Both the position numbers and the translations under genes were made by a program. This document shows positions 15,538-63,179 of a stretch of 64,000 nucleotides of DNA, in pieces (within the stretch, counting starts at the first letter, position 1; each line of letters opens with the position of its first letter). The DNA is from Macrostomum lignano (taxonomy: Eukaryota). Location of the stretch: positions 12,146-76,145 of the forward strand of contig NIVC01003803.1 of the NCBI GenBank assembly GCA_002269645.1, read 5' to 3'. The notes under the pieces are model-generated. The model did not search any database. It was not told the origin of the DNA and worked only from the letters and a program-made list of their open reading frames with translations.

Positions 15538-16308
15538 ATGCCATGTCAAAGATTCCATCTATCGTACGTGATACTGATTGCTACGTCTCACCTATTCATC
15601 TCGGGCGCTGCAATCGCTTGCCCGTCGGGCACCACTCGAATTGATGGCTCAACCAGGTCCTGGTGCGTCAGATGGTACGCCAACGGCGCCACCTTCTGCA
15701 ACGCTGTGAAGACATGTCGCGCGAACGGCGAGGAAATGATCGACAAGGAGGTGTTCGACGCCATGAGGGCAGAAAGGTCGCTATTTGGCGACATGTTTTG
15801 GTGGGTCGGACTCACCGACGCTCTGAAGGAAATGGGCACCAGCAAGACTGGCTGGGTGTGGCTGAACACGCGTCAGGAGCTCACCGCTGCAGATGACTAC
15901 TTCTACTCTGCTGAGCCAAACGACAGAACACATCAGGACTGCGCTACGACCTACAAGAAGCTGAATCGGATCAGAGACGAGTCCTGCAGTGCCAAGCGTC
16001 CGTTCTACTGCTATCTGGAAGGGTCCAAGAAGCCATCGCCTTCGAGGCTGCAGTTCAAGCGGACTCATATTGCAAGCTACAGCCAGTTGGACCCCGGATG
16101 TTGGTTGAAATGGACCGGAATCCGCGCCATATCAAAGTGCGCCTACTTATGTGTTAGCCAGGGATCATTGACGGACTGCATCGGATTCTACTGGCATCCC
16201 TGGAGGCTGGAGTGCTTCATCCTGCCCTACTTCGACGCCTCTGTGCCTCTTGGCTTCGACACTGATGAAGAGAAGCGGAAGTGGCGCAAGTACCTACGGG
16301 TTCTGTAG
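15538..16308 (+). CDS. Secreted C-type lectin domain protein with a C-terminal PAN/Apple-like domain, intronless
   Basis: Hydrophobic signal peptide; WWVGLTD, WVWLN, EPN motif, C...C-x7-FYC; C-terminal CAYLC...CIGFYW...C pattern. Confidence 0.85.
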   Translation: MPCQRFHLSYVILIATSHLFISGAAIACPSGTTRIDGSTRSWCVRWYANGATFCNAVKTCRANGEEMIDKEVFDAMRAERSLFGDMFWWVGLTDALKEMGTSKTGWVWLNTRQELTAADDYFYSAEPNDRTHQDCATTYKKLNRIRDESCSAKRPFYCYLEGSKKPSPSRLQFKRTHIASYSQLDPGCWLKWTGIRAISKCAYLCVSQGSLTDCIGFYWHPWRLECFILPYFDASVPLGFDTDEEKRKWRKYLRVL

Positions 16309-24435: not shown

Positions 24436-24485
24436 TCAAGAGCTGCAAATCCCAGACAAAAAGGAAACAAGGGCCCCACTCTCAC

Positions 24486-25186
24486 TTGTCAGTCGGGCGC
24501 TCATTACGGCGGTAGCCAGTCTCCGGCGGCGCCGTCTTATTCGTGGCCTCCATAAACTTGTTCAAGCAGCGCCGGTGCACGCTCTCCTCAGTGTTCTTGC
24601 AGCCCTGGCAGCGGCACATGTTAGTGCAACTAATCTTGGCCTCAAAGCATTCGCAATAGTTTTTCAGGCAGCCGCTTCGCTTACAGTTGCAGCCTTTGTT
24701 GTGCCGGCGTTCGCCTTCGCCTTTGCCAATTTTCGGATGAAATGCGAATGGATTTCGATTGAGCACAGATTTAATAGCCTTCTGCCTGACCTGCTCAAAG
24801 TCCAGATTATTCATGCAACCATTGCAATTGCAGTTATGGCACAGCTGGCCCTCAGAGAAGCATTCGCAATAGAGCTTCAAGCAGTGGCTCTTGTTGCAAT
24901 TGCAGCCGCGAAACTCCCCGGATGGTTGACCTGAGGCGGCTGCGGCGGTGTTGGCCTGATAGAAATTTCTAGGAATCCTGGGCTCAGACCGTTTCCTAGA
25001 CAGAGAACCATAGGAGATCGGATTGTAAATTGCCTGCTGCTGCTGTTGCTGAGGCGTCTGCTGCAGATGGTGGATACCAGAGCCAGAGGCATCCGACATC
25101 ACCATGTACTGCAGCTGACCATCGGACTCATCTGCTAGTACCATACTAGGCCGGATAATTTCACTGTGCTGCACTAAGCGCTGCAT
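24486..25186 (-). CDS. LIN54: LIN54/tesmin (Mip120)-like MuvB subunit, exon with two CXC (CRC) domains. Model: complement join 25186-24486, 24064-23668, 20490-20104, 19075-18296 (2265 nt, in frame)
   Basis: [17 protein letters not shown]...CNCNGCMN...[10 protein letters not shown]...[26 protein letters not shown]...CRCQGCKN; donor AA|GTGAGA. Confidence 0.92.
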
Positions 25187-36981: not shown

Positions 36982-37475
36982 CTCCGCGGAAAGACGATCA
37001 GCCTTCACAGCGACTGGTTCGCCTCGGCCACCCGACTTCACTACCTACTTGAAGTAGTTCGCCGCGTACTAGAATGCCGAGTTACTGCCGGCGGCAAGGC
37101 AAAGAAAGGCCGCAGATGCGCTATGCACGGCTTGGACGCGCACAAAACGGGCAGGACCAGCTGGAAGGAGCTGTGGGATGTCATGACAACGGAATGCCGT
37201 GCCGAGCTAGGCCTGGTGTCATTCGAGTCGCTGGAAGACACCCTGGACGCTCATCTTGTCAGGCATAAATTCTGTCGCGAGTGTCGGGCCAAAGTTGAAC
37301 GCGCATTCGCCATGATGATTGGCGACGAGGCGCCCGATAACACCTATAAGCCTGCGGTGTTCGCCTTTGTTCGCGTGTGCAAGGAGCGCGGGCATTTGCA
37401 CCTGCTGCCGGACAAAACCGCCACCGACACGCTGTACGAATTGGTGGATAGGGCCGAGCCCGAGCTGCTGCAGAG
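36982..37475 (+). CDS. GGNBP2: GGNBP2 exon 3
   Basis: RCAMHGLDAHK, WKELWDVMTTECR, HKFCRECRAKV, RAEPE; AG|GTGAGT. Confidence 0.92.
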
Positions 37476-37486
37476 GTGAGTAATCA

Positions 37487-38210
37487 GGTGTCTTTTGTTG
37501 TGTCTCATAGTCTGTTCGAATGTGTCTTTTGTTGTGTCTCATAGTCTGTTCGAATGTGTCTTTTGTTGTGTCTCATAGTCTGTTCAGATGTGTCTTGTTG
37601 TGTCTCATAGTCTGTTCAGATGTGTCTTGTTGTGTCTCATAGTCTGTTCAGATGTGTCTATTGTTGTGTCTCATAGTCTGTTCAGATGTGTCTTGTTGTG
37701 TCTCATAGTCTGTTCAGATGTGTCTTGTTGTGTCTCATAGTCTGTTCAGATGTGTCTATTGTTGTGTCTCATAGTCTGTTCAGATGTGTCTTGTTGTGTC
37801 TCATAGTCTGTTCAGATGTGTCTTGTTGTGTCTCATAGTCTGTTCAGATGTGTCTATTGTTGTGTCTCATAGTCTGTTCAGATGTGTCTTGTTGTGTCTC
37901 ATAGTCTGTTCAGATGTGTCTTGTTGTGTCTCATAGTCTGTTCAGATGTGTCTTGTTGTGTCTCATAGTCTGTTCAGATGTGTCTATTGTTGTGTCTCAT
38001 AGTCTGTTCAGATGTGTCTTGTTGTGTCTCATAGTCTGTTCAGATGTGTCTTGTTGTGTCTCATAGTCTGTTCAGATGTGTCTTGTTGTGTCTCATAGTC
38101 TGTTCAGATGTGTCTTGTTGTGTCTCATAGTCTGTTCAGATGTGTCTTGTTGTGTCTCATAGTCTGTTCAGATGTGTCTTGTTGTGTCTCATAGTCTGTT
38201 CAGATGTCTT
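37487..38210 (+). repeat. 32/34-bp minisatellite (GTGTCTTGTTGTGTCTCATAGTCTGTTCAGAT), GGNBP2 intron 3
   Basis: About 22 units. Confidence 0.96.
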
Positions 38211-38738
38211 TTACGCTCGTAGTGTGTCCTTCCTTAGTCTTTTCACAGGTGTCTTTTGTTGTGTCTCATAGTCTGTTTAGATGTGTCTCTTGGTGTGTCC
38301 GTTAGTCTGGTCAGATGCGCCTTTTAGTTTGTCTATTAGGCCTTTCAGATGTGTCTTAAGGTGTGTCCATTGATCTTCTAACATGTCTCTGTATATCTGT
38401 TATTACATTCAGCTCTTTTTGAGTGAAGTGTGCCTTCACGTAAATGTGTTTATTAAACTTTGGCCTTGGTTACAGCTATTGTTGCATTCATGAGTCTTGG
38501 GTGGTGGGTGGTGCTGTGTCTGGCTGTGTCCGCCCAATTATCTTTAAGCATGTCTTCAGTTGTGTCCATTAGTCACCATGTGTGTCTGTTGTTCTTTTTA
38601 TGTGTCTCTGGGCATGTCAATATCTCTATTCAACAAGGGCAAGCGTAACCATATCAGGCCTCTATTCCAGAGCCTGCGAATTCCCTTTGACCTTATTACC
38701 TACTGATGTGCCGCTCAATGTAGCTCCAACAATTGCAG

Positions 38739-39117
38739 CAATCCGCGCGAACGCCATGCGCAAACAATGGACGCGGCGCAAGAAGAAGTGCTCACCTGCA
38801 TCGGATTGCACCTGTACAACCGGCTGACTCACCTGGCTCACACGCTCCGGTCAGATGAACAGACCTGGCTGCTGTCTCTGCTGCTTTGCCTTGAACAGCT
38901 CCGCCAGGGTTTGGAATCAGCCGTAGAAAAGAAGCGCGGCTACTCCTCTTTGGACCTGTTCTACTGGCAGCTGGAGCGCGAGGAGAAGGTGGCCGAGCAG
39001 CGGCGCGAAGCTAAACGAGAGAAGCGTCGCCAGAAACGGCAGAATAAACGGGCAGCGGTTGGCAACGGCGCCACTGATGGAGACGGGGCCGACACTGCTA
39101 CTGACTCTGTTGTGACG
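38739..39117 (+). CDS. GGNBP2: GGNBP2 exon 4
   Basis: RERHAQTMDAAQEEVLTCIGLHLYNRL...EKRRQKR; phase fits exon 3; donor ACG|GTAGTT. Confidence 0.9.
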
Positions 39118-39159
39118 GTAGTTACTGTTGCACTTGATGCTTTGACCTCCCAGACCATA

Positions 39160-39685
39160 TTTGTAGCTGGTGCCCCTCTGTAGCTGGTGCCCCTCTGTAG
39201 CTGGTGCCCCTCTGTAGCTGGCGCCCCTCTGTAGCTGGTGCCCCTCTGTAGCTGGTGCCCCTCTGTAGCTGGCGCCCCTCTGTAGCTGGTGCCCCTCTGT
39301 AGCTGGTGCCCCTCTGTAGCTGGTGCCCCTCTGTAGCTGGCGCCCTTCTGTAGCTGGCGCCTCCTCTGTAGCTGGCGCCTCCTCTGTAGCTGGTGCCCCT
39401 CTGTAGCTGTCGCATCTTTGTAGCTAGCGCCCCCTCTATCTAGCGGCCCCCTGTAGCTGGCGCCATTCTCTGTAGCTAGCGGCCCCTGTAGCTGGCGCCA
39501 TTCTCTGTAGTTAGCGTCCCCTCTGTAGCTGGCGCCATTCTCTGTAGCTAGCGGCCCCCTGTAGCTGGCGCCATTCTCTGTAGTTAGCGTCCCCTCTGTA
39601 GCTGGCGCCCCTCTGTAGCTGGCGCCCCCTCTGTAGCTAGCGGCCCCCTGTAGCTGGCGCCATTCTCTGTAGTTAGCGTCCTAGC
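39160..39685 (+). repeat. 17-bp minisatellite (GTAGCTGGTGCCCCTCT), GGNBP2 intron 4
   Basis: Direct reading. Confidence 0.95.
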
Positions 39686-42320: not shown

Positions 42321-42994
42321 ATACTCTGTGTGTTTACGTCCCACGCTTGCGATCTCTAATCTTGGCCTCATCTTGTATAGCTGATATTTCAGTTGTCATT
42401 CCAGTTGCTAGATTTAGAATTCCTTGACGATGGCGCCCTTTTTGCAAGTTCAAAATATCGAAATGGAATCGATTTTAATGAAAACCAGAGAACTGTGCGA
42501 ATCCATCAACTGAAGCGTTCGCAGCAGCTGATGTCTGTGGCCCAAACCCCGGGGTTTTCCATGAGAGGTACATGTATTTATTGACTGACCATTGTCGCTA
42601 ACTCGATAGCTGAAACAACCGCGCCCTTTTGCCTTGCGGCTATTGGCATACTTGCGGGATCTGCTCCAGACACAGGAACTGGGATTACCTGCTAATTCCT
42701 TGATTCGGCTGATACCAGATTCTTGCCATGAGAATTCTGCGACAGCGCGACAGACTCTGACATTTGCCGCATCTCGGCATTTCGTTTGGAAAGGCTATAG
42801 AATTGCAAATCTAGCGGGCGATCTTTTTGAGCGGGCTCCATTCTAAAATTCGATTTGCTATTTGGATTTGGATTGCTCCTTTTCTTTCTTATGGTTACAT
42901 GTCCTACAGTTAGCTTGTACGAAAAGAGTTGTCTATATGGGTGACGGCCATCCAGTGCAGCATGTAAGAAACGCAGCTGTCTATGAAATATATA

Positions 42995-43580
42995 CTGTCC
43001 GTCAAAAGTTCCGGAACCCTTGCTACAATGACTTCTAGCGGACATAATTTCAGTCCGTTTCAATTGTAACTTGATTCAAATGAAAGCTGCGGATCTCAGC
43101 TCCATGATGTGGTCAAGAAAAAGTTTATTCGAAGGAGCGCGTGTGAACAGGCCAGTGTTATGTACATAAAGGTTAGAGAAAAAAGTGAGGAAAAGACAAA
43201 CAAGCAATTGTCTATGGTTGCTGAGTCTATGGAGCAAACACACATGGGAAGGAATCGGTTTGCGCGCAGTGTTCAGCCTGGCTAACATTAGTCTATGGCC
43301 AAAACTTGTGTTGAAATCAACAGGCTCTTATGGATTCTTGTGCAGTCAGCTTTCATGGGAGAGTCAATTGCTTGTTTGTCTTTTCCTTACTTTTTTCTCT
43401 AACCTTTATGTACATAACACTGGCCTGTTCACACGCGCTCCTTCGAATAAACTTTTTCTTGACCACATCATGGAGCTGAGATCCGCAGCTTTCATTTGAA
43501 TCAAGTTACAATTGAAACGGACTGAAATTATGTCCGCTAGAAGACATCGTAGCAAGGGTTCCGGAACTTTTGACGGACAG
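42995..43580. mobile_element. Tc1/mariner-type foldback MITE, 586 bp, with 216-bp inverted arms
   Basis: Arms 42995-43210 and 43365-43580 nearly perfectly complementary; TA on both flanks; termini CTGTCCGTCAAAAGTTCCGGAAC. Confidence 0.9.
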
Positions 43581-44067
43581 TATACTATTGAGGCACGCAT
43601 GAGCGCACGAGTGCCATAGAATTTTATCACAAGGCATCACAGAACCAGAATCTGTGCGCGGTGTAACACCTACAGTTTGGCGGCCTGCGATCTTAGGCTG
43701 TATTATCACCTAGGCGATAGAGTGACTATATATCGTTCTTACCCCGAATAATCTGAAATTAACAGATAATATATTGATATGGTCTCTGCAACAGCATATA
43801 CCGTATGTGAACGAGTAATTCATACACTGCCATAGCCAGTTTTTAAATAAGACGATGTGCACGGACGCAGAACGTAATTTACAGTAATACGTTATTTACT
43901 AGTACTGTAAGTAATGCTTTCGCTATAGCTAAGTAGATGTATGAATTGCAGTAAATATACCATTATTAAAGTTAAATAAAATTAACAGACAGAGCTCTAG
44001 CCCAAAGGCCAAATCTGAAGAAGGAACATATTCTTTGGATTCAATAATCTGGTACTGAACGGAGGAG

Positions 44068-52146: not shown

Positions 52147-52914
52147 TGTGACAGGCCTTTTGGCTCTGTCTTTCTAAACTTCTAACTATTAGTGTTTATT
52201 AAATATCCTACGAGCTGCCACCAAAGTTGTTACAGGCCTTTCACCTCTTACTTTATTAATTTTAATCCCACCGATTTGCCAACTACAGTTATCCTGATTA
52301 TACTTGCTTTTACTCCCTAACTATTTCTTAGAATTTCATTTAAATATTTCTGGGTAGCGTTCTTAGTAGCGTTTCTGGTAGCGTTCTTAGTAGCGTTTCT
52401 GGTAGCTTATGGCTTGCTTTCTGGTAGCGTTCTAGTAGCTTATGGCCTGAGCGGTCTAGTACTGGTATATGTATTAGTGTATAGTCCTAATCGGGCGTTC
52501 ACCAAGACTAGAGGGTCACGGCGCCTCTCTTGGTATATCTCCAAGAATTAGTCCCAATTCCCTTCTCTTAGCAAATTTCTTAGAATCGTTTCACAGGTTT
52601 TGCAAATAAATAAGTCGCTATTTAGCTCAAAGACTTTGAAATGGTTTAGATTGAACTGCTTATTCTGTTCGCAATTATTTGCTCACGAGTAAAAGACAGT
52701 TGGAGTATATTTGTCGCAAAACCGCTCCTATATATAGTGATTTTCCCCACATACGATTAAAACAAAAAAATAATTCTCCAATTTATTTCGCGCATTAAAA
52801 CAAACTATTATTTGGCGTTCGCGTAGATTCAGTTTCTAAGAAAGATTCGAATATACAGTTATTACATTGAAAGAACATTCGAGTATACTATGATAAAGGC
52901 ATAGCACTAGTACA
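52147..52914 (-). repeat. 3' LTR (768 bp)
   Basis: Near-identical to 60053-60818; preceded on the minus strand by PPT AGAGGAGGAAAG (52916-52927). Confidence 0.96.
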
Positions 52915-53200
52915 ACTTTCCTCCTCTATATATCAAATTTTGAACGAAATACTATATTATATGTATACAGTGAAAAATTGATATCGTAGGAAAATGCAGG
53001 TGAAAAGGTGCAAAGCAAGGTGCAGAAAACACAATTCAGTGCTAAAACAATTGGTGCATAAAATGGTTGTGATAGAACTATTATGTAGGTAAACCATTAA
53101 AGTGAGAACTATTATGGAAGCAAAACGAACTATTATAAAAGTATTATAAAAGGCAAAATTGTTATTAAAGGCAACGCAAAAGTTAGTTCACCTCAATAGT

Positions 53201-54076
53201 TCAGATAAACATGCAGGGCTCCGGGAGGTCGCGATAGTAGGGCCAGCCGACTTGAGCGAAAAACCATCGGTACTCTTCGTCGAGGACCGTCAGCGCTGGC
53301 GGCGGGTTGGCTCTTATAGCTCGCTGGAGGCGATAGGCGACGTCCTGGAGAACAGCGACAGCTTCCTGGTAACTGAATTGATCCCTCAGAAACTTCAGGT
53401 GTGTCCAAATTTGCGAGCATTGGGGGTAGCGCTGTCGGCTGTCGGATCGGTGGTACGCTACTTTCAGTGCGTATTGCTCAATGTGGAAGCGTAGCTTTTC
53501 CACCTCTGCTCCGCGAGTCTCCACAAGTTCTCGGACGATGCGATGAAAATCTCTCTGCGAATTCGATTGCTGCTGGCTCGGCTGTAGTGCTGATGGCTGG
53601 CTAGACTGCTGCGCTGATTGCAGGCTCGGCTGCAGCGCTGACTGCTGCGCTGATTGCAGGCTCGGCTGCGACGCTGGCTGCTGAGCTGGCGGTGTCGCAG
53701 CTGTCGATTTCTTCTGCCGTGGTGCCGGGGTCTTTCTCGATGATGGGGCAGCTGGCGGTGACACCAACTGCTGCGTTCGGCTTGATGTCGACGATCCTGG
53801 CGTGGCCTTGACAACATAGGAGCGCACGGGCGCAGCTGCCTGTGCTGCCACCAGGGCGGCGCGCTTCTGCTCGGGGCCTTCGACCCTCATTTGGCGGCAA
53901 GGCGATGAAGCTGGCGATGATGTTCTTGGCCGTTTGCTGGATACACCAGGCGCCTTTGGACGTGTTGCACATCGAAGCGGTGCCTCATTTTCGTCGGTGT
54001 TGGGCGCTGGCTGGGGCTCCATATCGTCTGACAGATTGCCAATTAACTCGTCCAAGATATCAATAGAGTTGTTCAT
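53201..54076 (-). CDS. Orphan third ORF (291 aa) inside the retrotransposon; not env-like
   Basis: caaaATG start; intact frame; GC-rich; no signal peptide or TM segment visible; upstream TATA and GC box. Confidence 0.75.
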   Translation of the reverse strand: MNNSIDILDELIGNLSDDMEPQPAPNTDENEAPLRCATRPKAPGVSSKRPRTSSPASSPCRQMRVEGPEQKRAALVAAQAAAPVRSYVVKATPGSSTSSRTQQLVSPPAAPSSRKTPAPRQKKSTAATPPAQQPASQPSLQSAQQSALQPSLQSAQQSSQPSALQPSQQQSNSQRDFHRIVRELVETRGAEVEKLRFHIEQYALKVAYHRSDSRQRYPQCSQIWTHLKFLRDQFSYQEAVAVLQDVAYRLQRAIRANPPPALTVLDEEYRWFFAQVGWPYYRDLPEPCMFI

Positions 54077-54158
54077 TTTGATTTCTCTGCGAATGGCTCT
54101 TAGAATAGAAAGGAAGCTAGCAGTGAGCTATGGGATCTGTGGGGCCTGCGGGTGCTCG

Positions 54159-54227
54159 TATTTATAGGCTGGCGGGCCGAAAAACTGGACCTCTTCGAAG
54201 CACTCCCCTCGCGCGTGGGGCGGGGCA
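54159..54227 (-). promoter_or_regulatory. Candidate internal Pol II promoter for ORF3
   Basis: GGGGCGGGGC GC box at ~54217-54226 and TATAAATA at 54166-54159, 90 nt upstream of the ATG. Confidence 0.55.
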
Positions 54228-54475
54228 TGCCAGATTTGACAGATTTGACAACTAAATTTTTATGGATTTTCTATTTCTTTTTATAACTTTTTTATTTTTT
54301 GATAGATTTTCTTGAGTAAAGTATCAAATTAAAGATCGCATTTTGTAGATTAATATGGTATTTACAGATTCGCTCTATGTACAGCATGTCAAATTTTATA
54401 AGCAGATAAGTAATTCTAATACGGAATTTTAACTATTTAACACTGTTTCTTATGGGAAATTGCTTACGTCATGAT

Positions 54476-56379
54476 TTAAGGTGCTAAATATTTCGCGTAG
54501 CGCCTTCGGGGCACAAATCCTGTCGCGCCTTCTCTTTCTCTCCTTCGCTGAGTCATCCTAAAGTTATACCTATTCTCTGGCTGAACTCGTTCCTCCTCTA
54601 ACTCTAATGCTCCTTCTTCTTCTTCTGATGGCTCATCTGAGTCAGTCGCTCTCTCTGTATTCTCACTGTTCAATTCTTCATTTCCTTCGTTTTCACTCTG
54701 CGAATTCGGATCTGCGAATACTCTCCATTGAATTCTGTTTTCTTCGTCTGAGCTTTCCTCCTCTAAAATTTGAACTTCTGGAATTCTAACTTCTTTTTGT
54801 CTATGGCAAATTCTTTTATTCGACTTCGGCGGTTCCTTCTTCTTAGTTGACACTGGTGCTGGTTTTAAATTATTATTAATTTCCTCTGGTAAATCAATTT
54901 CGGATTTCGGCACTGGAGTCAGATTATTTCTATGTACTAATAGTTTTTCTCCGCTCCTTTCGCCATTGATTTCTCTTTGCACACGGAACACTGTGTCTGA
55001 TATCTTCGCAAGTACTCGATAGGCTGCTCTCTTCTTTCGATGAAACTTGTGGCTCTCCTCTTGGTGAAGTTGAGGGTTGTTGATGAGAGCGAGACAGCCA
55101 ACTGGCACATTTTTAGGCTGACGATTCTCAACTTCGTCCTCTTGCCTTTTCTCTCGCACCTTTTCGAGTTGTCTTCGCACAATTGCTTTTGTCTCCTCGA
55201 TTCTCTTCGCATGATCCAGCACATAACTAGGATAGTCTCGGTATAGTCTTGGCCTTTTCACAATGCTATCTATTGGCAAATCTGCTTCTCTCCCGAATAG
55301 TAAGTAGTGTGGTGTGAACCCAGTAGTTTGATTAACACTGGTTCGCACAGCTACCAAAGCGGCGGGTATGAGCAGATCCCAATCTGAATGATCCTTTTCA
55401 ATCAAACAGGTTACAATCGATTTAATTTGCTTGTTAAATCTTTCGACAAGCCCGTTACTCTGAGCATGGTAAGGCGTAGTGCAAGTATGCTTAATGCCGT
55501 ATAGGGTACAGAATGCCTGAAATTGGTGACTTACAAAAGTCTTGCCATTATCAGTGTGTATCCATTGACACTGGCCATACTCGCTGAAAATTCTCTCTTG
55601 TATCGTTTTGATAACAGTAGCGGATTTCTGATTCCGAACCGGAAAAGCGAATGGGAACTTTGTTGTACTATCTACACAGTAAGTACATATCGGTGTCCTC
55701 TTCTGCTTTCCTTTGATATTGGACCGATCAAATCTATGTGCAGCCGATGGAATGGCTCACATATCGGAAAGGTCTGCACCGGTGCTCGTACTTTATTTCC
55801 GCTTTTACTTTCCAAACACGGGATGCATTCTACGATGTACTTTTCAACTGCAGTCACTAACCCCGGCCTCCAGAATCGGTCTCGGACTCGCTGTAGCGTC
55901 TTGTCCCGACCTAGGTGGCCTGCTAGCGGACTGTCGTGCAGCTCTTTGAATACATCTTTCTCAATCTTCTCTGGCAATACTACTTTTCGTTTACCGTCTT
56001 CACTGACTGTCAGCATTTCATCTTCGATTTTCATCTGCTCGTAGAGCTTAACCATCTTCTTCAACTCTCCGGATGCATTTTCTGGTAACTTCGGCTCACG
56101 TACTTTCTTCTGCTTCCAGTCCATCAAGGTTCTTATAGAAGGATCAGCATGCTGCGCTGAAGTCAGCTGCTCTTTCTTCAATGGAACCGAGAGGTAATCT
56201 GTCAGAAGCTTTCTGCACACTGTCTCTTCCTCTTCGAAATAGTCTCTTGCATCTTCATAGATGTCATCATCATCTTCGAACTGATCACTGGCATCTTCGT
56301 ATTCATCATCTGCGAATTCGTCTTCGGAATCTGATTCATACTCTTCTGTGAAGTCGGTCTGGCAACTCTGATCTTTCAC
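54476..56379 (-). CDS. pol: Pol segment 3: integrase, interrupted by a frameshift near 55672
   Basis: HDSPLAGH...C..C zinc finger; after a -1 shift, VDSTTK, HTDNG and GLVERFN (DDE); degenerate GPY/F module. Confidence 0.93.
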
Positions 56380-58292
56380 GCTGTAGTCACGACTTGTTTC
56401 ACAGCGCTGGTTTCTATTGTCATCTTAGGAATTTCGGCCTCATTCTCTTTGATCTTAGCATCTTTCTGTTCAACTGGTGGTTCCGAGGGTCGCCGTGACA
56501 ATCCATCTGCGTTGGAATGTTTGGCTCCACTGCGGTGCTCAATATCGTATTGAAACTCACTCAGTCTTTCAATCCATCTTCCGAGAATTCCTTGGGCTTC
56601 GGTCTGGCGCAATAGCCATAGAATTGCCTTGTGGTCTGTGCGGGCCAGAAACCTTTTGCCAATTAGGTAAAATCGGAAGTGTTTCATGCCATCTACTAGC
56701 GCTAATAGCTCTTTTCTGGTAATCGGATATCTTTTCTCAGACTCTTTCATTGCTCTGCTGAAGTAAGCAATGGGTCTTTCAACCCCGTCCGATTGTATTT
56801 GACCCAGGCAAGCACCAATTCGGTCTTCGCTTGCGTCGGTGTCTAACACCATTCGAACATTTTCGTTCTCTGAGAATTCTGGGTACGCGAGTACTTCGGT
56901 CGATGTCATTCTCTGCTTCAACTGCTGGAAAGCCTCGTCATGCTTCTTGGTCCACTTTTCCCTAAAGTTTTGAATACCTTTCTTAGTTAATTGAAATAGC
57001 GGATGCGCTGCCTCTGCGTAATTCTTTACAAATCTGCAGTAGTAGTTACACAACCCCAAGAAGCTTCGCAGTTCTTTGACCTCTTTCGGCGTAGGCCATG
57101 ACTGTATCGCTTCGATCTTAGCTGGGTCTGTTCTAATCCCTTCTCTTCCTACGATATGCCCTAAGTACTTTAGCTCTTTCTGAAACAAGTTGCACTTTTT
57201 TGGTCTTAATTTTAGTCCTGCTGAGATTAGTCTTTGAAATACTTCTTGCAGATGACCGAGATGATCTTCGAATTTCTCTGAGTATGTCACAATATCATCT
57301 ATGTACGACATCGCGAATTTGTGCTGTATTCCCATCAGCACCAAATTCATGAGTCTCTGGAATGTACCAGGAGCGTTAGACAAGCCCTGTGCCATGACCT
57401 GATATTCGAACTGGCCTCTGGTAAGGGTGGAAAAGGCTGTCATAAATTTGTGCTCTTCTTTGATAGGTACCTGCCAGTATCCAGAGTTTAAATCTAGACT
57501 ACTGAAGTACTTGCTTCCAGATAACTGAGCGAAAGTCTCTTGTATGTTCGGCAATGGATATGGGTAATAGTTCACTCTCGAGTTCAGGACCCTGAAGTCA
57601 CTGACGATTCTTATGGATCCATCCTTCTTAGGAACTATCACTAGCGGCGTTGAATAAGTACTATAGCATGGTCGGATCAGGTTCTTAGCAAGCATGTCGT
57701 CAAGTTGCTCATCTACTTGCTTTTGCAGATGTGGTGGAATTCTGCGTGTTGGAATCCTGACCGGTGTGGTATCTTTTAGAGATATTTCATGAGTCACAAG
57801 ATGGGTGAGACCCATGTCTTGGTTGGTCTGCGAAAATGCTTCCTTGTTCTTCTTTAGCAAATCGATCACTAGTCCTTTCTGTTCTGATGTTAGCTCTTCT
57901 CCTAAATCGATCTCGTTTATCCAGCTGTACTCACTCTCTTCACTCTTCACTGTCCTAATTGCATCATCTGAACTGGCTTGACCTTTGCTGTTAATAGAGT
58001 AGGCCAGGCCTCCTGGCTTCAAGGGTTTGGCCACTCCAATCAGCGTAGATCTTGTCAGTCTGATATCGTCATTCTGTCGATTGATTATTTCCACTACTCC
58101 TGTTCCATCGTTCATGGTCACTAGAGTAGGAATCATCTCTAAGGAATTTCTCTTCGTAGTCACTTGGCCTCCAATGGTGTCAATGACCATTGGCGTTCCA
58201 TAGTTAGCTTCTGATCCTTTAGTCATTCTAATTGGAATTCGAAGAGCGCTATTCGCTGGTATAGTCACGCTGTTATGGCTGTAATTCGGCAA
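56376..58292 (-). CDS. pol: Pol segment 2: reverse transcriptase and RNase H
   Basis: LDLNSGYWQV, GLSNAPGTFQ, YIDDI, LDTDAS, ELLA, TDHKAI, ADGLSR. Confidence 0.96.
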   Translation of the reverse strand: MPNYSHNSVTIPANSALRIPIRMTKGSEANYGTPMVIDTIGGQVTTKRNSLEMIPTLVTMNDGTGVVEIINRQNDDIRLTRSTLIGVAKPLKPGGLAYSINSKGQASSDDAIRTVKSEESEYSWINEIDLGEELTSEQKGLVIDLLKKNKEAFSQTNQDMGLTHLVTHEISLKDTTPVRIPTRRIPPHLQKQVDEQLDDMLAKNLIRPCYSTYSTPLVIVPKKDGSIRIVSDFRVLNSRVNYYPYPLPNIQETFAQLSGSKYFSSLDLNSGYWQVPIKEEHKFMTAFSTLTRGQFEYQVMAQGLSNAPGTFQRLMNLVLMGIQHKFAMSYIDDIVTYSEKFEDHLGHLQEVFQRLISAGLKLRPKKCNLFQKELKYLGHIVGREGIRTDPAKIEAIQSWPTPKEVKELRSFLGLCNYYCRFVKNYAEAAHPLFQLTKKGIQNFREKWTKKHDEAFQQLKQRMTSTEVLAYPEFSENENVRMVLDTDASEDRIGACLGQIQSDGVERPIAYFSRAMKESEKRYPITRKELLALVDGMKHFRFYLIGKRFLARTDHKAILWLLRQTEAQGILGRWIERLSEFQYDIEHRSGAKHSNADGLSRRPSEPPVEQKDAKIKENEAEIPKMTIETSAVKQVVTTA

Positions 58293-59055
58293 ACCCGTAC
58301 GGGTAATTTTGTAAACTGAATTGGGATGCAGGTCCTTCTTTTAATACAAGCATTCCTCTGGAAAGGCTGATGCTGTCGCAGAAGTTCATGAAGAACTCCA
58401 TCCCGAGTATGTCGTCACACTCGTGATTGCACAGCAGGAACTCTGTCTCAATCTCTATCTCTCCGAATCGTATTTTCGTTCTGACTTCTCCTTCAATTCG
58501 CACACTTGATCCGTCAAACGTAGTCACTCTTCTAGTAGTCAACTCAATTTCATCACTTCTGAACATCTTTTTCCAAGTACTCTTGCTTAGGAAATTATGT
58601 CCAGCTCCTGTGTCTAGCAGGAAGTAGACCTTTCGGTTTCTTAGCATTCCATTGACGACTGCTTCTCGTCCTTTTCTCTCCGTATCTTCTTCGAATTCTT
58701 TCTTCGAATGCTCATTCGGAATTACTGTACTTTGTACTTTATTATTCGGCCTACTGTGGCTGGCAGACGCATGACTAGGTGCAAGCGGCGTATGTACACG
58801 AGGTGCAAAATTTTTATTTGGTTTTCTGTGAAATTTATTGAATTCGGCATGCGTTCTGCTGTTACTATACTGTCTGGCATTACTTCGATACGCATTATTT
58901 ACAAATTCAGAGGCCTGAAATTCGCGATAATTGTTGCTAGAGGGACGTGGCCTCGCAAAGCGGCCCTCGCTACTCAGTTTCCCTGCTGCTTCTGGTAGTT
59001 CACACTCGCTGACCGTTTGGCCTAGCGCTCTGGCAATTCCTCGCCATGTGGCCAA
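58273..59055 (-). CDS. pol: Pol segment 1: aspartic protease
   Basis: FLLDTGAGHNF and DILGMEF motifs. Confidence 0.9.
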   Translation of the reverse strand: MATWRGIARALGQTVSECELPEAAGKLSSEGRFARPRPSSNNYREFQASEFVNNAYRSNARQYSNSRTHAEFNKFHRKPNKNFAPRVHTPLAPSHASASHSRPNNKVQSTVIPNEHSKKEFEEDTERKGREAVVNGMLRNRKVYFLLDTGAGHNFLSKSTWKKMFRSDEIELTTRRVTTFDGSSVRIEGEVRTKIRFGEIEIETEFLLCNHECDDILGMEFFMNFCDSISLSRGMLVLKEGPASQFSLQNYPYGFAELQP

Positions 59056-59953
59056 GCTTCCCGCAATTGTAGCAGGCTCGAGGCTGCTGCTGTTGCTGTG
59101 GCTGCCTGTTGAACTGAGGCTGACCGCGCCATACTGGCTGCTGCTGCTGCTGCTGCTGCGGTCCAGCGACCTGAGCGTACGTTTGATATTGATTCTGCGG
59201 ATGATACTGCTGACGGCTAGCTCTCTTCTCTTCCATCAGCTCCTCAATCGCCTTCTTCTGTTGCTCTAACTCTGCTCTCTGCTTCTTGATGATGTCCTCA
59301 AGCTTCTCCTGATCTGCCTTCTGCTCACTCTCGCCTTCGCCTTTGGCCATTCTCATGTTGACATTCTTGTGAGACATGTTCCACGCAGCCTCCATCCTTC
59401 TTAGCATTCTTCTAGCCTCTTGTAAATTGCCTGGCTGCGCAAAGATTAGCTTCTCACGGGTCTCTGACGGAATTCTGATTCCCTTGATGAATTGCTCAAC
59501 AATTTCTTCTTCCCTTTGCTCAACCGTCATATTCGGAAATGCACGCGATGCCAGCTCGATCAAACAGTCTGCGAAAGTCTCTACAGGCTCATTTCTGCCT
59601 TGCATTCTTCCACGAAACTCCTCTCTGAATTCTGCGGAACTACCGATTCTTCCGAATCGCTCAATCAGTCGCTCTTTGAACTCTTCGTATTCAAGATCCT
59701 CGGGCAGATTTAGGCGCTGTACCGCTGCGAATGCAGTGGACAGGTCCAGATTAGCTAGCAATTCCTGCTTCCTATGTTCCTCATCTATCCCTTCTACTTC
59801 ACAGCGCTGATCGAAGGCTGTTAGCCAGATCCGAATGTCTTGCGTAGGTGTGAATTTCTGAATCTTAACGTGTCTCATCGGCCCTATCTCTAGTCGGTTT
59901 CGCAATTCTTCTGCCAGCATGGCGATGGCGTCATTAGCCTGATTCTGATTCAT
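59000..59953 (-). CDS. gag: Gag with capsid-like domain and a CCHC zinc knuckle
   Basis: CYNCGKLGHMARNC; FRGRMQGRNEPVETFADCLIELASRAFP. Confidence 0.93.
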   Translation of the reverse strand: MNQNQANDAIAMLAEELRNRLEIGPMRHVKIQKFTPTQDIRIWLTAFDQRCEVEGIDEEHRKQELLANLDLSTAFAAVQRLNLPEDLEYEEFKERLIERFGRIGSSAEFREEFRGRMQGRNEPVETFADCLIELASRAFPNMTVEQREEEIVEQFIKGIRIPSETREKLIFAQPGNLQEARRMLRRMEAAWNMSHKNVNMRMAKGEGESEQKADQEKLEDIIKKQRAELEQQKKAIEELMEEKRASRQQYHPQNQYQTYAQVAGPQQQQQQQPVWRGQPQFNRQPQQQQQPRACYNCGKLGHMARNCQSARPNGQRV

Positions 59954-60032: not shown

Positions 60033-60050
60033 ATCCCACCGCTGCCACCA
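60033..60050 (-). promoter_or_regulatory. Primer binding site complementary to the tRNA-Leu 3' end
   Basis: TGGTGGCAGCGGTGGGAT, 2 nt from the LTR; matches the ...AUCCCACCGCUGCCACCA end of tRNA-Leu(AAG/UAG). Confidence 0.9.
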
Positions 60051-60052
60051 GC

Positions 60053-60818
60053 TGTGACAGGCCTTTTGGCTCTGTCTTTCTAAACTTCTAACTATTAGTG
60101 TTTATTAAATATCCTACGAGCTGCCACCAAAGTTGTTACAGGCCTTTCACCTCTTACTTTATCAATTTTAATCCCACCGATTTGCCAACTACAGTTATCC
60201 TGATTATACTTGCTTTTACTCCCTAACTATTTCTTAGAATTTCATTTAAATATTTCTGGGTAGCGTTCTTAGTAGCGTTTCTGGTAGCGTTCTTAGTAGC
60301 GTTTCTGGTAGCTTATGGCTTGCTTTCTGGTAGCGTTCTAGTAGCTTATGGCCTGAGCGGTCTAGTACTGGTATATGTATTAGTGTATAGTCCTAATCGG
60401 GCGTTCACCAGACTAGAGGGTCACGGCGCCTCTCTTGGTATATCTCCAAGAATTAGTCCCAATTCCCTTCTCTTAGCAAATTTCTTAGAATCGTTTCACA
60501 GGTTTTGCAAATAAATAAGTCGCTATTTAGCTCAAAGACTTTGAAATGGTTTAGATTGAACTGCTTATTCTGTTCGCAATTATTTGCTCACGAGTAAAAG
60601 ACAGTTGAGTATATTTGTCGCAAAACCGCTCCTATATATAGTGATTTTCCCCACATACGATTAAAACAAAAAAATAATTCTCCAATTTATTTCGCGCATT
60701 AAAACAAACTATTATTTGGCGTTCGCGTAGATTCAGTTTCTAAGAAAGATTCGAATATACAGTTATTACATTGAAAGAACATTCGAGTATACTATGATAA
60801 AGGCATAGCACTAGTACA
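60053..60818 (-). repeat. 5' LTR (766 bp)
   Basis: By eye, one substitution and two 1-nt indels relative to the 3' LTR. Confidence 0.96.
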
Positions 60819-60983
60819 TTACCATCAGTTTATTGAGAAATCATTGCTAATATTTATGCTATGCAAAAATGAAATAAATATGCAACAAGGTATTTATTTT
60901 GTGCTTAGCTACTTGCTTTATTAAGTTTATTTAGTGGATAAACATCTATAGGTCAAGCTACAATAAAAGCTAGGCCATGTGGC

Positions 60984-61447
60984 AATGGCTAGAGTTCCGG
61001 CACCGGAACCCATTTTCTAACAGCTACGGATCCGGCAGTGCCATTATAATATAGATGGAACATTATATTTTTCTTTCTACAGGTGGCTGATATTGAGATT
61101 TTGTTCTAGATTAAAATTTAAGACGATATGATAAGATTTAGGATGAGATGCTTCTAATATTCAGACTTCTTAAGATATGTTCATACATGCGCAACCTTGG
61201 GAATCACCCGGCCGTTTCTATTGGCAACACACACATGTAAGTCGCTATTGGCTGAGAGCAGTCACGTGACTACTATTCTGTCCAATAGCGACTTACGTGT
61301 GTGTGTTGCCAATAGAAACGGCCGGGTGAATCCCTAGGTTGCGCCCAAGCATGGATATGTTCTTAGTAGTCTTTATATGCTTCTATATGGCACTGCTGGA
61401 TCCCTAGCTGTTAGAAAATGGGTTCTGGTGCCGGAACTCTAGCCATT
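60984..61447. mobile_element. Palindromic MITE with ~70-bp TIRs and a 155-bp central palindrome
   Basis: AATGGCTAGAGTTCCGGCACC.GAACCCATTTTCTAACAGCTA and its inverse at 61388-61447; inner arms 61189-61344; no TSD resolved. Confidence 0.8.
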
Positions 61448-63179
61448 ACCAGGCCATGTTGGTATGTGGCCATCTTGGTCATGTGCCATTTACTTCTTAG
61501 CCAAAAATACAACTTACCTGTGAAATAATTAGATAAATAGGAAAATACTAAAAGTCTAAAATAGGATGGCTTTTGGTGTATATATAGCTTGATTCTGACT
61601 AACCTTGTTCTGGACCAAGTATTAAGTTCTAGACTTCTAGCTTAGAATATCAATTGTAAATGAAGCAAAGCTAAAAAAATTATAATAATATAAATTTAGT
61701 GTAAACTTTGCTAAAATCGATCGCATACCTATATACCTAGATAGATAGATAGATACCGACAGACCATTTTTAGTATAGGGGCCTATGGATATAAATAATT
61801 TGTTACTACAATCAATAGTTATTAGCCTACCTAATATTAGTTAGGCATTAGGCCCTAACTTTAAAAATTTTGGGCTTAATGAATATACATTTACTGTTAT
61901 TAATATAATAATAATTATTATTATTAGTCAACTCATTTTTATAGTATTAGGGTTTAGTTAATTATGATACGTCATATACTGTATAGACCCAATCGTGTAT
62001 GAAACTGCGATTAAATTTTTTGCGTTTTTTTTGCGGATAGTGATCATTTAAAAAGTTATCGTTTTTAGATAGGAAGATAAACAAACTGTACTGTGATATT
62101 ATGCAGTTCTGTCTGCATTTTTATAAATTGTATATATTAGTAGTGCAGATTTTTTTGTATACTTTTTGAAGTTTCTAAGCAAAAATATACTTACACTAAA
62201 ATTATACAAGACACCAACACAACTTTCCATCGGAACTCACATTTTTGTTGGGCCAAGCAAAGGTTTAAGTTTTAACCTGTTCTTGTTTGGTTTAAACGCG
62301 ATATGAAATTTAAGATATGAGATATTATAGTAAATTCGCAAACAGCACAAAACTATTTTGTTTGTTCCGTTAATGTCAGATACCACTAAGATAAACCCAC
62401 CACAAAATTATTTCGCAATAAAAACATTCCATTGCCCATTGGTAAATGGCAAATGATCGTGATAGTAGATAGCATTTTTTTGGCTCCCCAACGGGGGGCG
62501 CTGATTGCTAGTCAAATATACTATGAACGATGCCTCCTACTCTTATTCATCTCGATAGTTTTTTGTATTTTGTTATTCATTATGGGCGTATGGCAGCTAG
62601 GCCCATAGCTGTTTATTTTATTTTTAGTAATTTCATGTTTTTTTGATTCAGCCTGCAGGAATCGCTTTTTTCTTCTTAAACCTAGTCTAGGGCCTAAAAA
62701 GGAGAGACACATAAGTTATGAATAGGAAATCATTAAGTATTCAACTTACTTAGAATGATATTTGCATGGATAATTAGCTATATTGCAAAACATTAAATAA
62801 AAACTTTTAGCAATAGAATGTTATTAAATTCTTCTTCACTTGTAACTAATATAATCAATTAAAATTAAATAAACTTTTTCATGAAATAGAACTTGATAAT
62901 CATTAGTAATAAAAAATTACAATATTAGCTTTGAGCAAATTCTTTAAATATATATTAATACTTGTTATATTTTATATTTAATATGGTTATTAATGTTCTA
63001 AAATCTATTTTTTTAATAACGAGTTTTCAAGCTTTTTGTTTTGAGGCTTTTTATCTCCTTATCATTTGCTACTCTTAAAAAAATTAAACATTTATTGCTT
63101 TTTTCTATAACATTGTTATTATTTTATATTCCTTATACTTTTTTGATAATTAAGTAACCTCACTAAAACATTTGCTGAC

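Follow-up and report, generated by a model that had tools for sequence, protein, structure and literature searches.

An intact third gene lacking envelope features in a young Ty3/gypsy element of Macrostomum lignano, a possible nuclear adaptor

The stretch of Macrostomum lignano DNA analysed here (assembly GCA_002269645.1, contig NIVC01003803.1, positions 12,146 to 76,145; 64,000 nucleotides, hereafter the window) houses on its minus strand an 8.7 kb Ty3/gypsy retrotransposon with two long terminal repeats (LTRs), a primer binding site (PBS), a polypurine tract (PPT), a target-site duplication, and gag followed by a pol gene for protease, reverse transcriptase, RNase H and integrase (PR-RT-RH-IN). 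The LTRs differ in 3 of 769 columns (one substitution and two single-base gaps), and the element is a young, recent insertion. Between the integrase stop (at about 54478) and the PPT (52927-52916) sits a further open reading frame (ORF), here called ORF3, with the orientation of gag and pol. The features of the element and of ORF3, in window positions, are the following.

60822-60819 and 52146-52143: target-site duplication GTAA, 4 bp
60053..60818, minus strand: 5' LTR (TG...CA), with a TATA-like site of its own at 60640
60033..60050, minus strand: PBS, presumably tRNA-Leu-like
59000..59953, minus strand: gag, 317 aa, one CCHC knuckle
54476..58647, minus strand: pol, order PR-RT-RH-IN, in several frames in this assembly
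53201..54076, minus strand: ORF3, 291 aa, CAAA-ATG start
54032..54055, minus strand: acidic amphipathic helix motif [IL]Dx[LF][LI]xxL, residues 8-15, found in proteins P0001, P0002 and P0007
53957..53986, minus strand: conserved motif EAPLRxxTRP, residues 31-40, which includes RxxTxP
53855..53935, minus strand: basic pair KRP ... K[RK]AA, residues 48-74, resembling a bipartite nuclear localization signal (NLS)
53204..53569, minus strand: conserved C-terminal domain, residues 170-291, predicted five-helix bundle
52916..52927, minus strand: PPT
52147..52914, minus strand: 3' LTR

An earlier note on this DNA had drawn attention to an intact sense ORF of 291 residues between integrase and the PPT. 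It is indeed located there: none of 2000 base shuffles of ORF3 gave a stop-free frame of 250 residues, and the translation displays, as the note had described, an acidic helix, a KRPR motif, a middle rich in Pro, Ser and Gln, and an aromatic C-terminus. The note also set the unbroken ORF3 against the frameshifted pol. Although this holds for the window, it is a weak argument. Single-base indels in gag-pol, the LTR and the promoter separate short-read contigs from the window, so that some of the frame breaks probably reflect errors of assembly, and in so young a copy the intactness of ORF3 alone is no sign of selection.

The position of ORF3 3' of pol and its sense orientation are compatible with a divergent env gene or a small fusogen. 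However, neither a transmembrane (TM) segment (the highest 19-residue hydropathy is 1.02) nor a furin site (R-x-K/R-R) occurs in any of the six proteins scanned, namely ORF3 and five relatives (see below), and a soluble helical bundle is predicted. The N-terminus of ORF3 is, judged by eye, acidic, with no hydrophobic stretch. An env or env-like identity, assessed by a TM anchor and a furin site, is thus disfavoured for all six, in line with the earlier note, and we regard it as hardly credible.

An exhaustive search against 1.84 billion representatives returned five matches, four of which were kept as real relatives (E 2e-18 to 4e-5; 30-43% BLASTP identity to ORF3). Three of the four carry M. 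lignano gene names, namely P0002 (349 aa, Mlig016073/Mlig008906), P0004 (90 aa, Mlig008543) and P0006/P0008 (118 aa, Mlig026206); P0003, with its longer form P0007, comes from contigs. The C-terminal domain is common to ORF3 and all four, with nine invariant columns in the alignment. The three distinct full-length proteins (about 31-40% identical) have kept the acidic helix, EAPLRxxTRP and KRP...K[RK]AA while the linker drifts, a pattern that points to a protein under selection. ORF3 can therefore be called an orphan, as it was in the earlier note, in the sense of having no family name, but not in that of having no relatives. Further searches found no member beyond this set, and the family is small, conserved and apparently undescribed. 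No description of it was met in the literature searched, which left out most subscription papers, including an earlier classification of the elements, and the word ORF does not occur in the portion consulted of a study on the LTR families of M. lignano (PMC12801592). Two peculiarities of single members may be added. P0006/P0008 corresponds to roughly the domain alone, at two loci sharing one gene name, and is possibly domesticated or truncated; and the P/S/Q linker of ORF3 (window 53575-53690) contains in-frame tandem repeats of 12, 24 and 36 nt that the relatives lack.

Since the GenBank gene set of M. lignano is described as transcript-based, with transcripts overlapping annotated repeats excluded (PMC5730564), the relatives could be either host genes or genes of elements that escaped masking. 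The occurrence of three of them as host gene models in this repeat-filtered set, together with the G+C content of ORF3 (0.58, above the 0.43-0.44 of pol), would suit a host gene from a family specific to Macrostomum, recently captured with its own promoter and carried as a passenger, the conservation reflecting the host genes. We consider such a capture unlikely: with even the nearest relative in the databases at only about 40% identity, there is no sign of a recent donor; gag is likewise richer in G+C (0.51); and ORF3 is placed where accessory genes usually lie, its signals being compact. Sequencing contigs add two further points against it, the presence of ORF3 within the element in every run and the existence of a gap-free sister.

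These contigs stem from four public runs, each from a different study (three of them RNA by guess, the fourth unlabelled); such contigs drop rare forms and cannot reveal RNA starts. All four runs contain contigs covering ORF3 and crossing the PPT-LTR junction, and single contigs lead from the LTR through ORF3 into the integrase tail or its stop (to 54542 in X3, 54910 in X8 and 54782 in X16). None of the 40 sequence differences listed, out of 385, lies within ORF3. ORF3 belongs to the element. One X12 contig represents a diverged sister, with 60 differences over 287 letters and no gap (about 79% identity), a hint of coding constraint. What is found between pol and the 3' LTR is accordingly a conserved extra ORF, as expected of an accessory gene, in a context shown for this element family alone. 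As a separate observation, word depth over the 3' block (52915-54900) is about twice that over gag-pol (55000-59900) in all four runs, with values in X12 of 199-223 for the integrase tail, spacer and ORF3 against 119-129 for gag-pol, and one X8 contig departs from the window sequence at 54928. The ORF3 block may hence also follow a pol of a second lineage or belong to a derivative with a deletion, a hint to be read with the reservation that depth does not equal copy number.

The C-terminal domain was modelled as a five-helix bundle (pLDDT 84); the confident, all-helical models come from two divergent members, and the region of the acidic motif is a helix in the model of P0007. No significant sequence or fold match to the domain was obtained and no library names the family, which agrees with the failure of the earlier note to recognize one. 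A histone-fold match in Pfam (E 0.11) concerned one of seven members and fell mostly over the linker; the model is a five-helix bundle. There is a weak likeness to the C-terminal domain of INTS6 (ISDCC, from INTS6/SAGE1/DDX26B/CT45; PDB 7bv7_C), with 26% identity in one model and 13% in a second, 70-71 of the 74 residues aligning to helices 2-5; the ISDCC profile was not among the matches listed in the Pfam scans, whose filters remove weak ones. The INTS6 domain binds the Integrator subunit INTS3 and uses Pro823, Arg825, Arg857, Phe858 and Lys859 for this purpose (PMC8368002). If these residues are mapped by spacing, the Pro and the Arg at +34 recur in all five distinct members and the Arg at +2 in four (the window copy has Cys), and the Phe-Lys pair in none. 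INTS3 is the single partner that can be named, a rather doubtful one, suggested by the weak likeness to the INTS6 domain.

As to how ORF3 might be expressed, three candidate signals lie in the spacer upstream.

54217..54225, minus strand: GC box, candidate internal promoter
54159..54166, minus strand: TATAAATA, TATA, occurring once only in the element
54099..54127, minus strand: candidate splice or trans-splice acceptor (branch-like CTCAC, pyrimidine tract, AG)

The first two had been picked out in the earlier note and are present as described; the third had been overlooked. RNA directed by the TATA would be expected to start near 54136-54140, and the ATG of ORF3 is the first one after the TATA. 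In a test framed post hoc, after the motifs had been noticed, the 408-nt spacer was put through 3000 dinucleotide shuffles; the GC box and TATA appeared together in 18 of them, an uncommon outcome, and the TATA alone in 853. On the whole, a start at the internal promoter seems slightly favoured, splicing or trans-splicing at 54099 is a lesser though real possibility, and some other route appears improbable. A stricter version of the second route, in which there is no internal promoter and the mRNA arises by splicing of the transcript begun in the LTR, as for env, or receives a spliced leader, is tentative. Ranked by pyrimidine content, the AG at 54099, 23 nt before the ATG, shares first place among all 727 AG sites in the internal region, and it is accompanied by a branch-like motif; 38.8% of the non-redundant genes of M. 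lignano are reported to be trans-spliced (PMC5730564), and the env mRNA of Tor3a is spliced from the LTR (PMC4402516). On the other hand, none of the 15 joints listed, out of 20, in contigs from runs guessed to be RNA connects the LTR or a leader to 54099, none of the 24 loose contig ends listed, out of 427, falls there, and splicing would leave the GC box and the TATA, which are spaced as in a promoter, without explanation.

We favour, with a probability of about one half, the reading that the young Ty3/gypsy element has in ORF3 a third gene, intact and not of the envelope type, which represents a conserved family with a predicted five-helix domain and a predicted disordered linker and whose product acts as a nuclear adaptor that binds host proteins so as to favour expression of the element. 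The accessory factor proposed in the earlier note, which suggested a transactivator or an anti-silencing protein, is retained to this extent, as the conserved domain and the NLS-like motifs fit a nuclear factor. The protein would be made from a short mRNA of its own that terminates in the 3' LTR, and would be imported into the nucleus through KRP...K[RK]AA. Import may be gated by phosphorylation of RxxTxP, which we take to be a 14-3-3-type motif. The protein would then dock on host factors via its acidic helix and helical domain, and would act on the transcription or RNA-processing machinery of the host to the benefit of the element.

Two more specific functions can be envisaged. The acidic, leucine-containing helix could be the export signal of a factor similar to Rev or CERV that carries unspliced genomic RNA out of the nucleus; this is rather improbable, as ORF3 lacks an arginine-rich RNA-binding stretch and its Gle1 scores lie within background. 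It is similarly a long shot that ORF3 represents a captured domain akin to the C-terminal one of INTS6, since diverged and set on a disordered scaffold in the nucleus, expressed from the internal promoter as a transposon counterpart of SAGE1/CT45, a decoy that would occupy INTS3 and blunt Integrator termination of the element's transcripts. If the INTS6 lead were true, ORF3 would be an Integrator antagonist encoded by a transposon.

Additional ORFs located between pol and the 3' LTR are a familiar feature, and the layout described here has precedents for the nuclear-adaptor reading to draw on. Foamy viruses, in which an internal promoter drives the accessory genes Tas and Bet close to the 3' end, were put forward in the earlier note as a known parallel. 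They are retroviruses, however, unlike the Ty3/gypsy element, no match of ORF3 in a viral fold library was seen, and LTR retrotransposons with an internal promoter of their own are already in print. Gene23 of the maize Ty3/gypsy element Grande is an extra ORF in the same place, nuclear, with its own promoter and no database homologue, but it is antisense and belongs to a plant element, whereas ORF3 is sense, comes from an animal, and has a promoter and localization predicted from its sequence (PMC7264820). In Oikopleura, the env genes of Tor3b and Tor4b are driven from an internal promoter, Penv; these animal LTR elements resemble our candidate in having a sense third ORF under an internal promoter, which in Tor4b lies in the space after pol, but the Tor product is a membrane glycoprotein, unlike ORF3 with neither TM segment nor furin site (PMC4402516). 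CERV of the Caenorhabditis elegans element Cer1, a nuclear regulator and export factor, shares with ORF3 a non-enzymatic nature, an animal LTR element as its carrier, and an NLS with helical domains; it differs in its length of 517 aa, its spliced mRNA overlapping gag, and its G-protein-like domain (PMC10309623). Non-env third ORFs also occur in gypsy-like elements of another invertebrate group, the bdelloid rotifers, but these encode GDSL esterases, DEDDy exonucleases or TM proteins, none of which was matched to ORF3 (PMC5408684).

Few regulators of animal LTR retrotransposons have been characterized, CERV being one case (PMC10309623). The ORF3 family has a fold predicted with confidence, its short motifs are conserved, and RNAi and LTR reporters work in M. 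lignano (PMC12801592); it would thereby offer a direct means of studying how the retrotransposons of animals oppose the transcription control of their hosts or exploit it.

Several minor observations concern the remainder of the element and the window. To guess from its motifs, the element may fall into the Gmr1/Osvaldo cluster; 40 families of this cluster have been reported from M. lignano. Each LTR contains a second PBS-like stretch (60129-60112 and 52223-52206) some 80 nt short of its end, with LTR-end-like sequence ahead of that stretch, as if the U5-PBS border had once been duplicated. In the integrase region 54476-54800, a long acidic tail gives way to a basic end, and contig variation is higher there than in ORF3. 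Nested inverted repeats with arms of 65 and 63 nt (60980-61451) lie just outside the 5' LTR, and a 223-nt inverted pair (98%) is found elsewhere (42991-43584), both resembling miniature inverted-repeat or foldback transposons. Three host-like stretches complete the picture; judging by their translations, we take them to be a cysteine-rich CXC tesmin/LIN54-like exon (24482-25186, minus strand), a secreted C-type-lectin-like protein (15538-16308, plus strand) and GGNBP2-like exons (37123-39183, plus strand).
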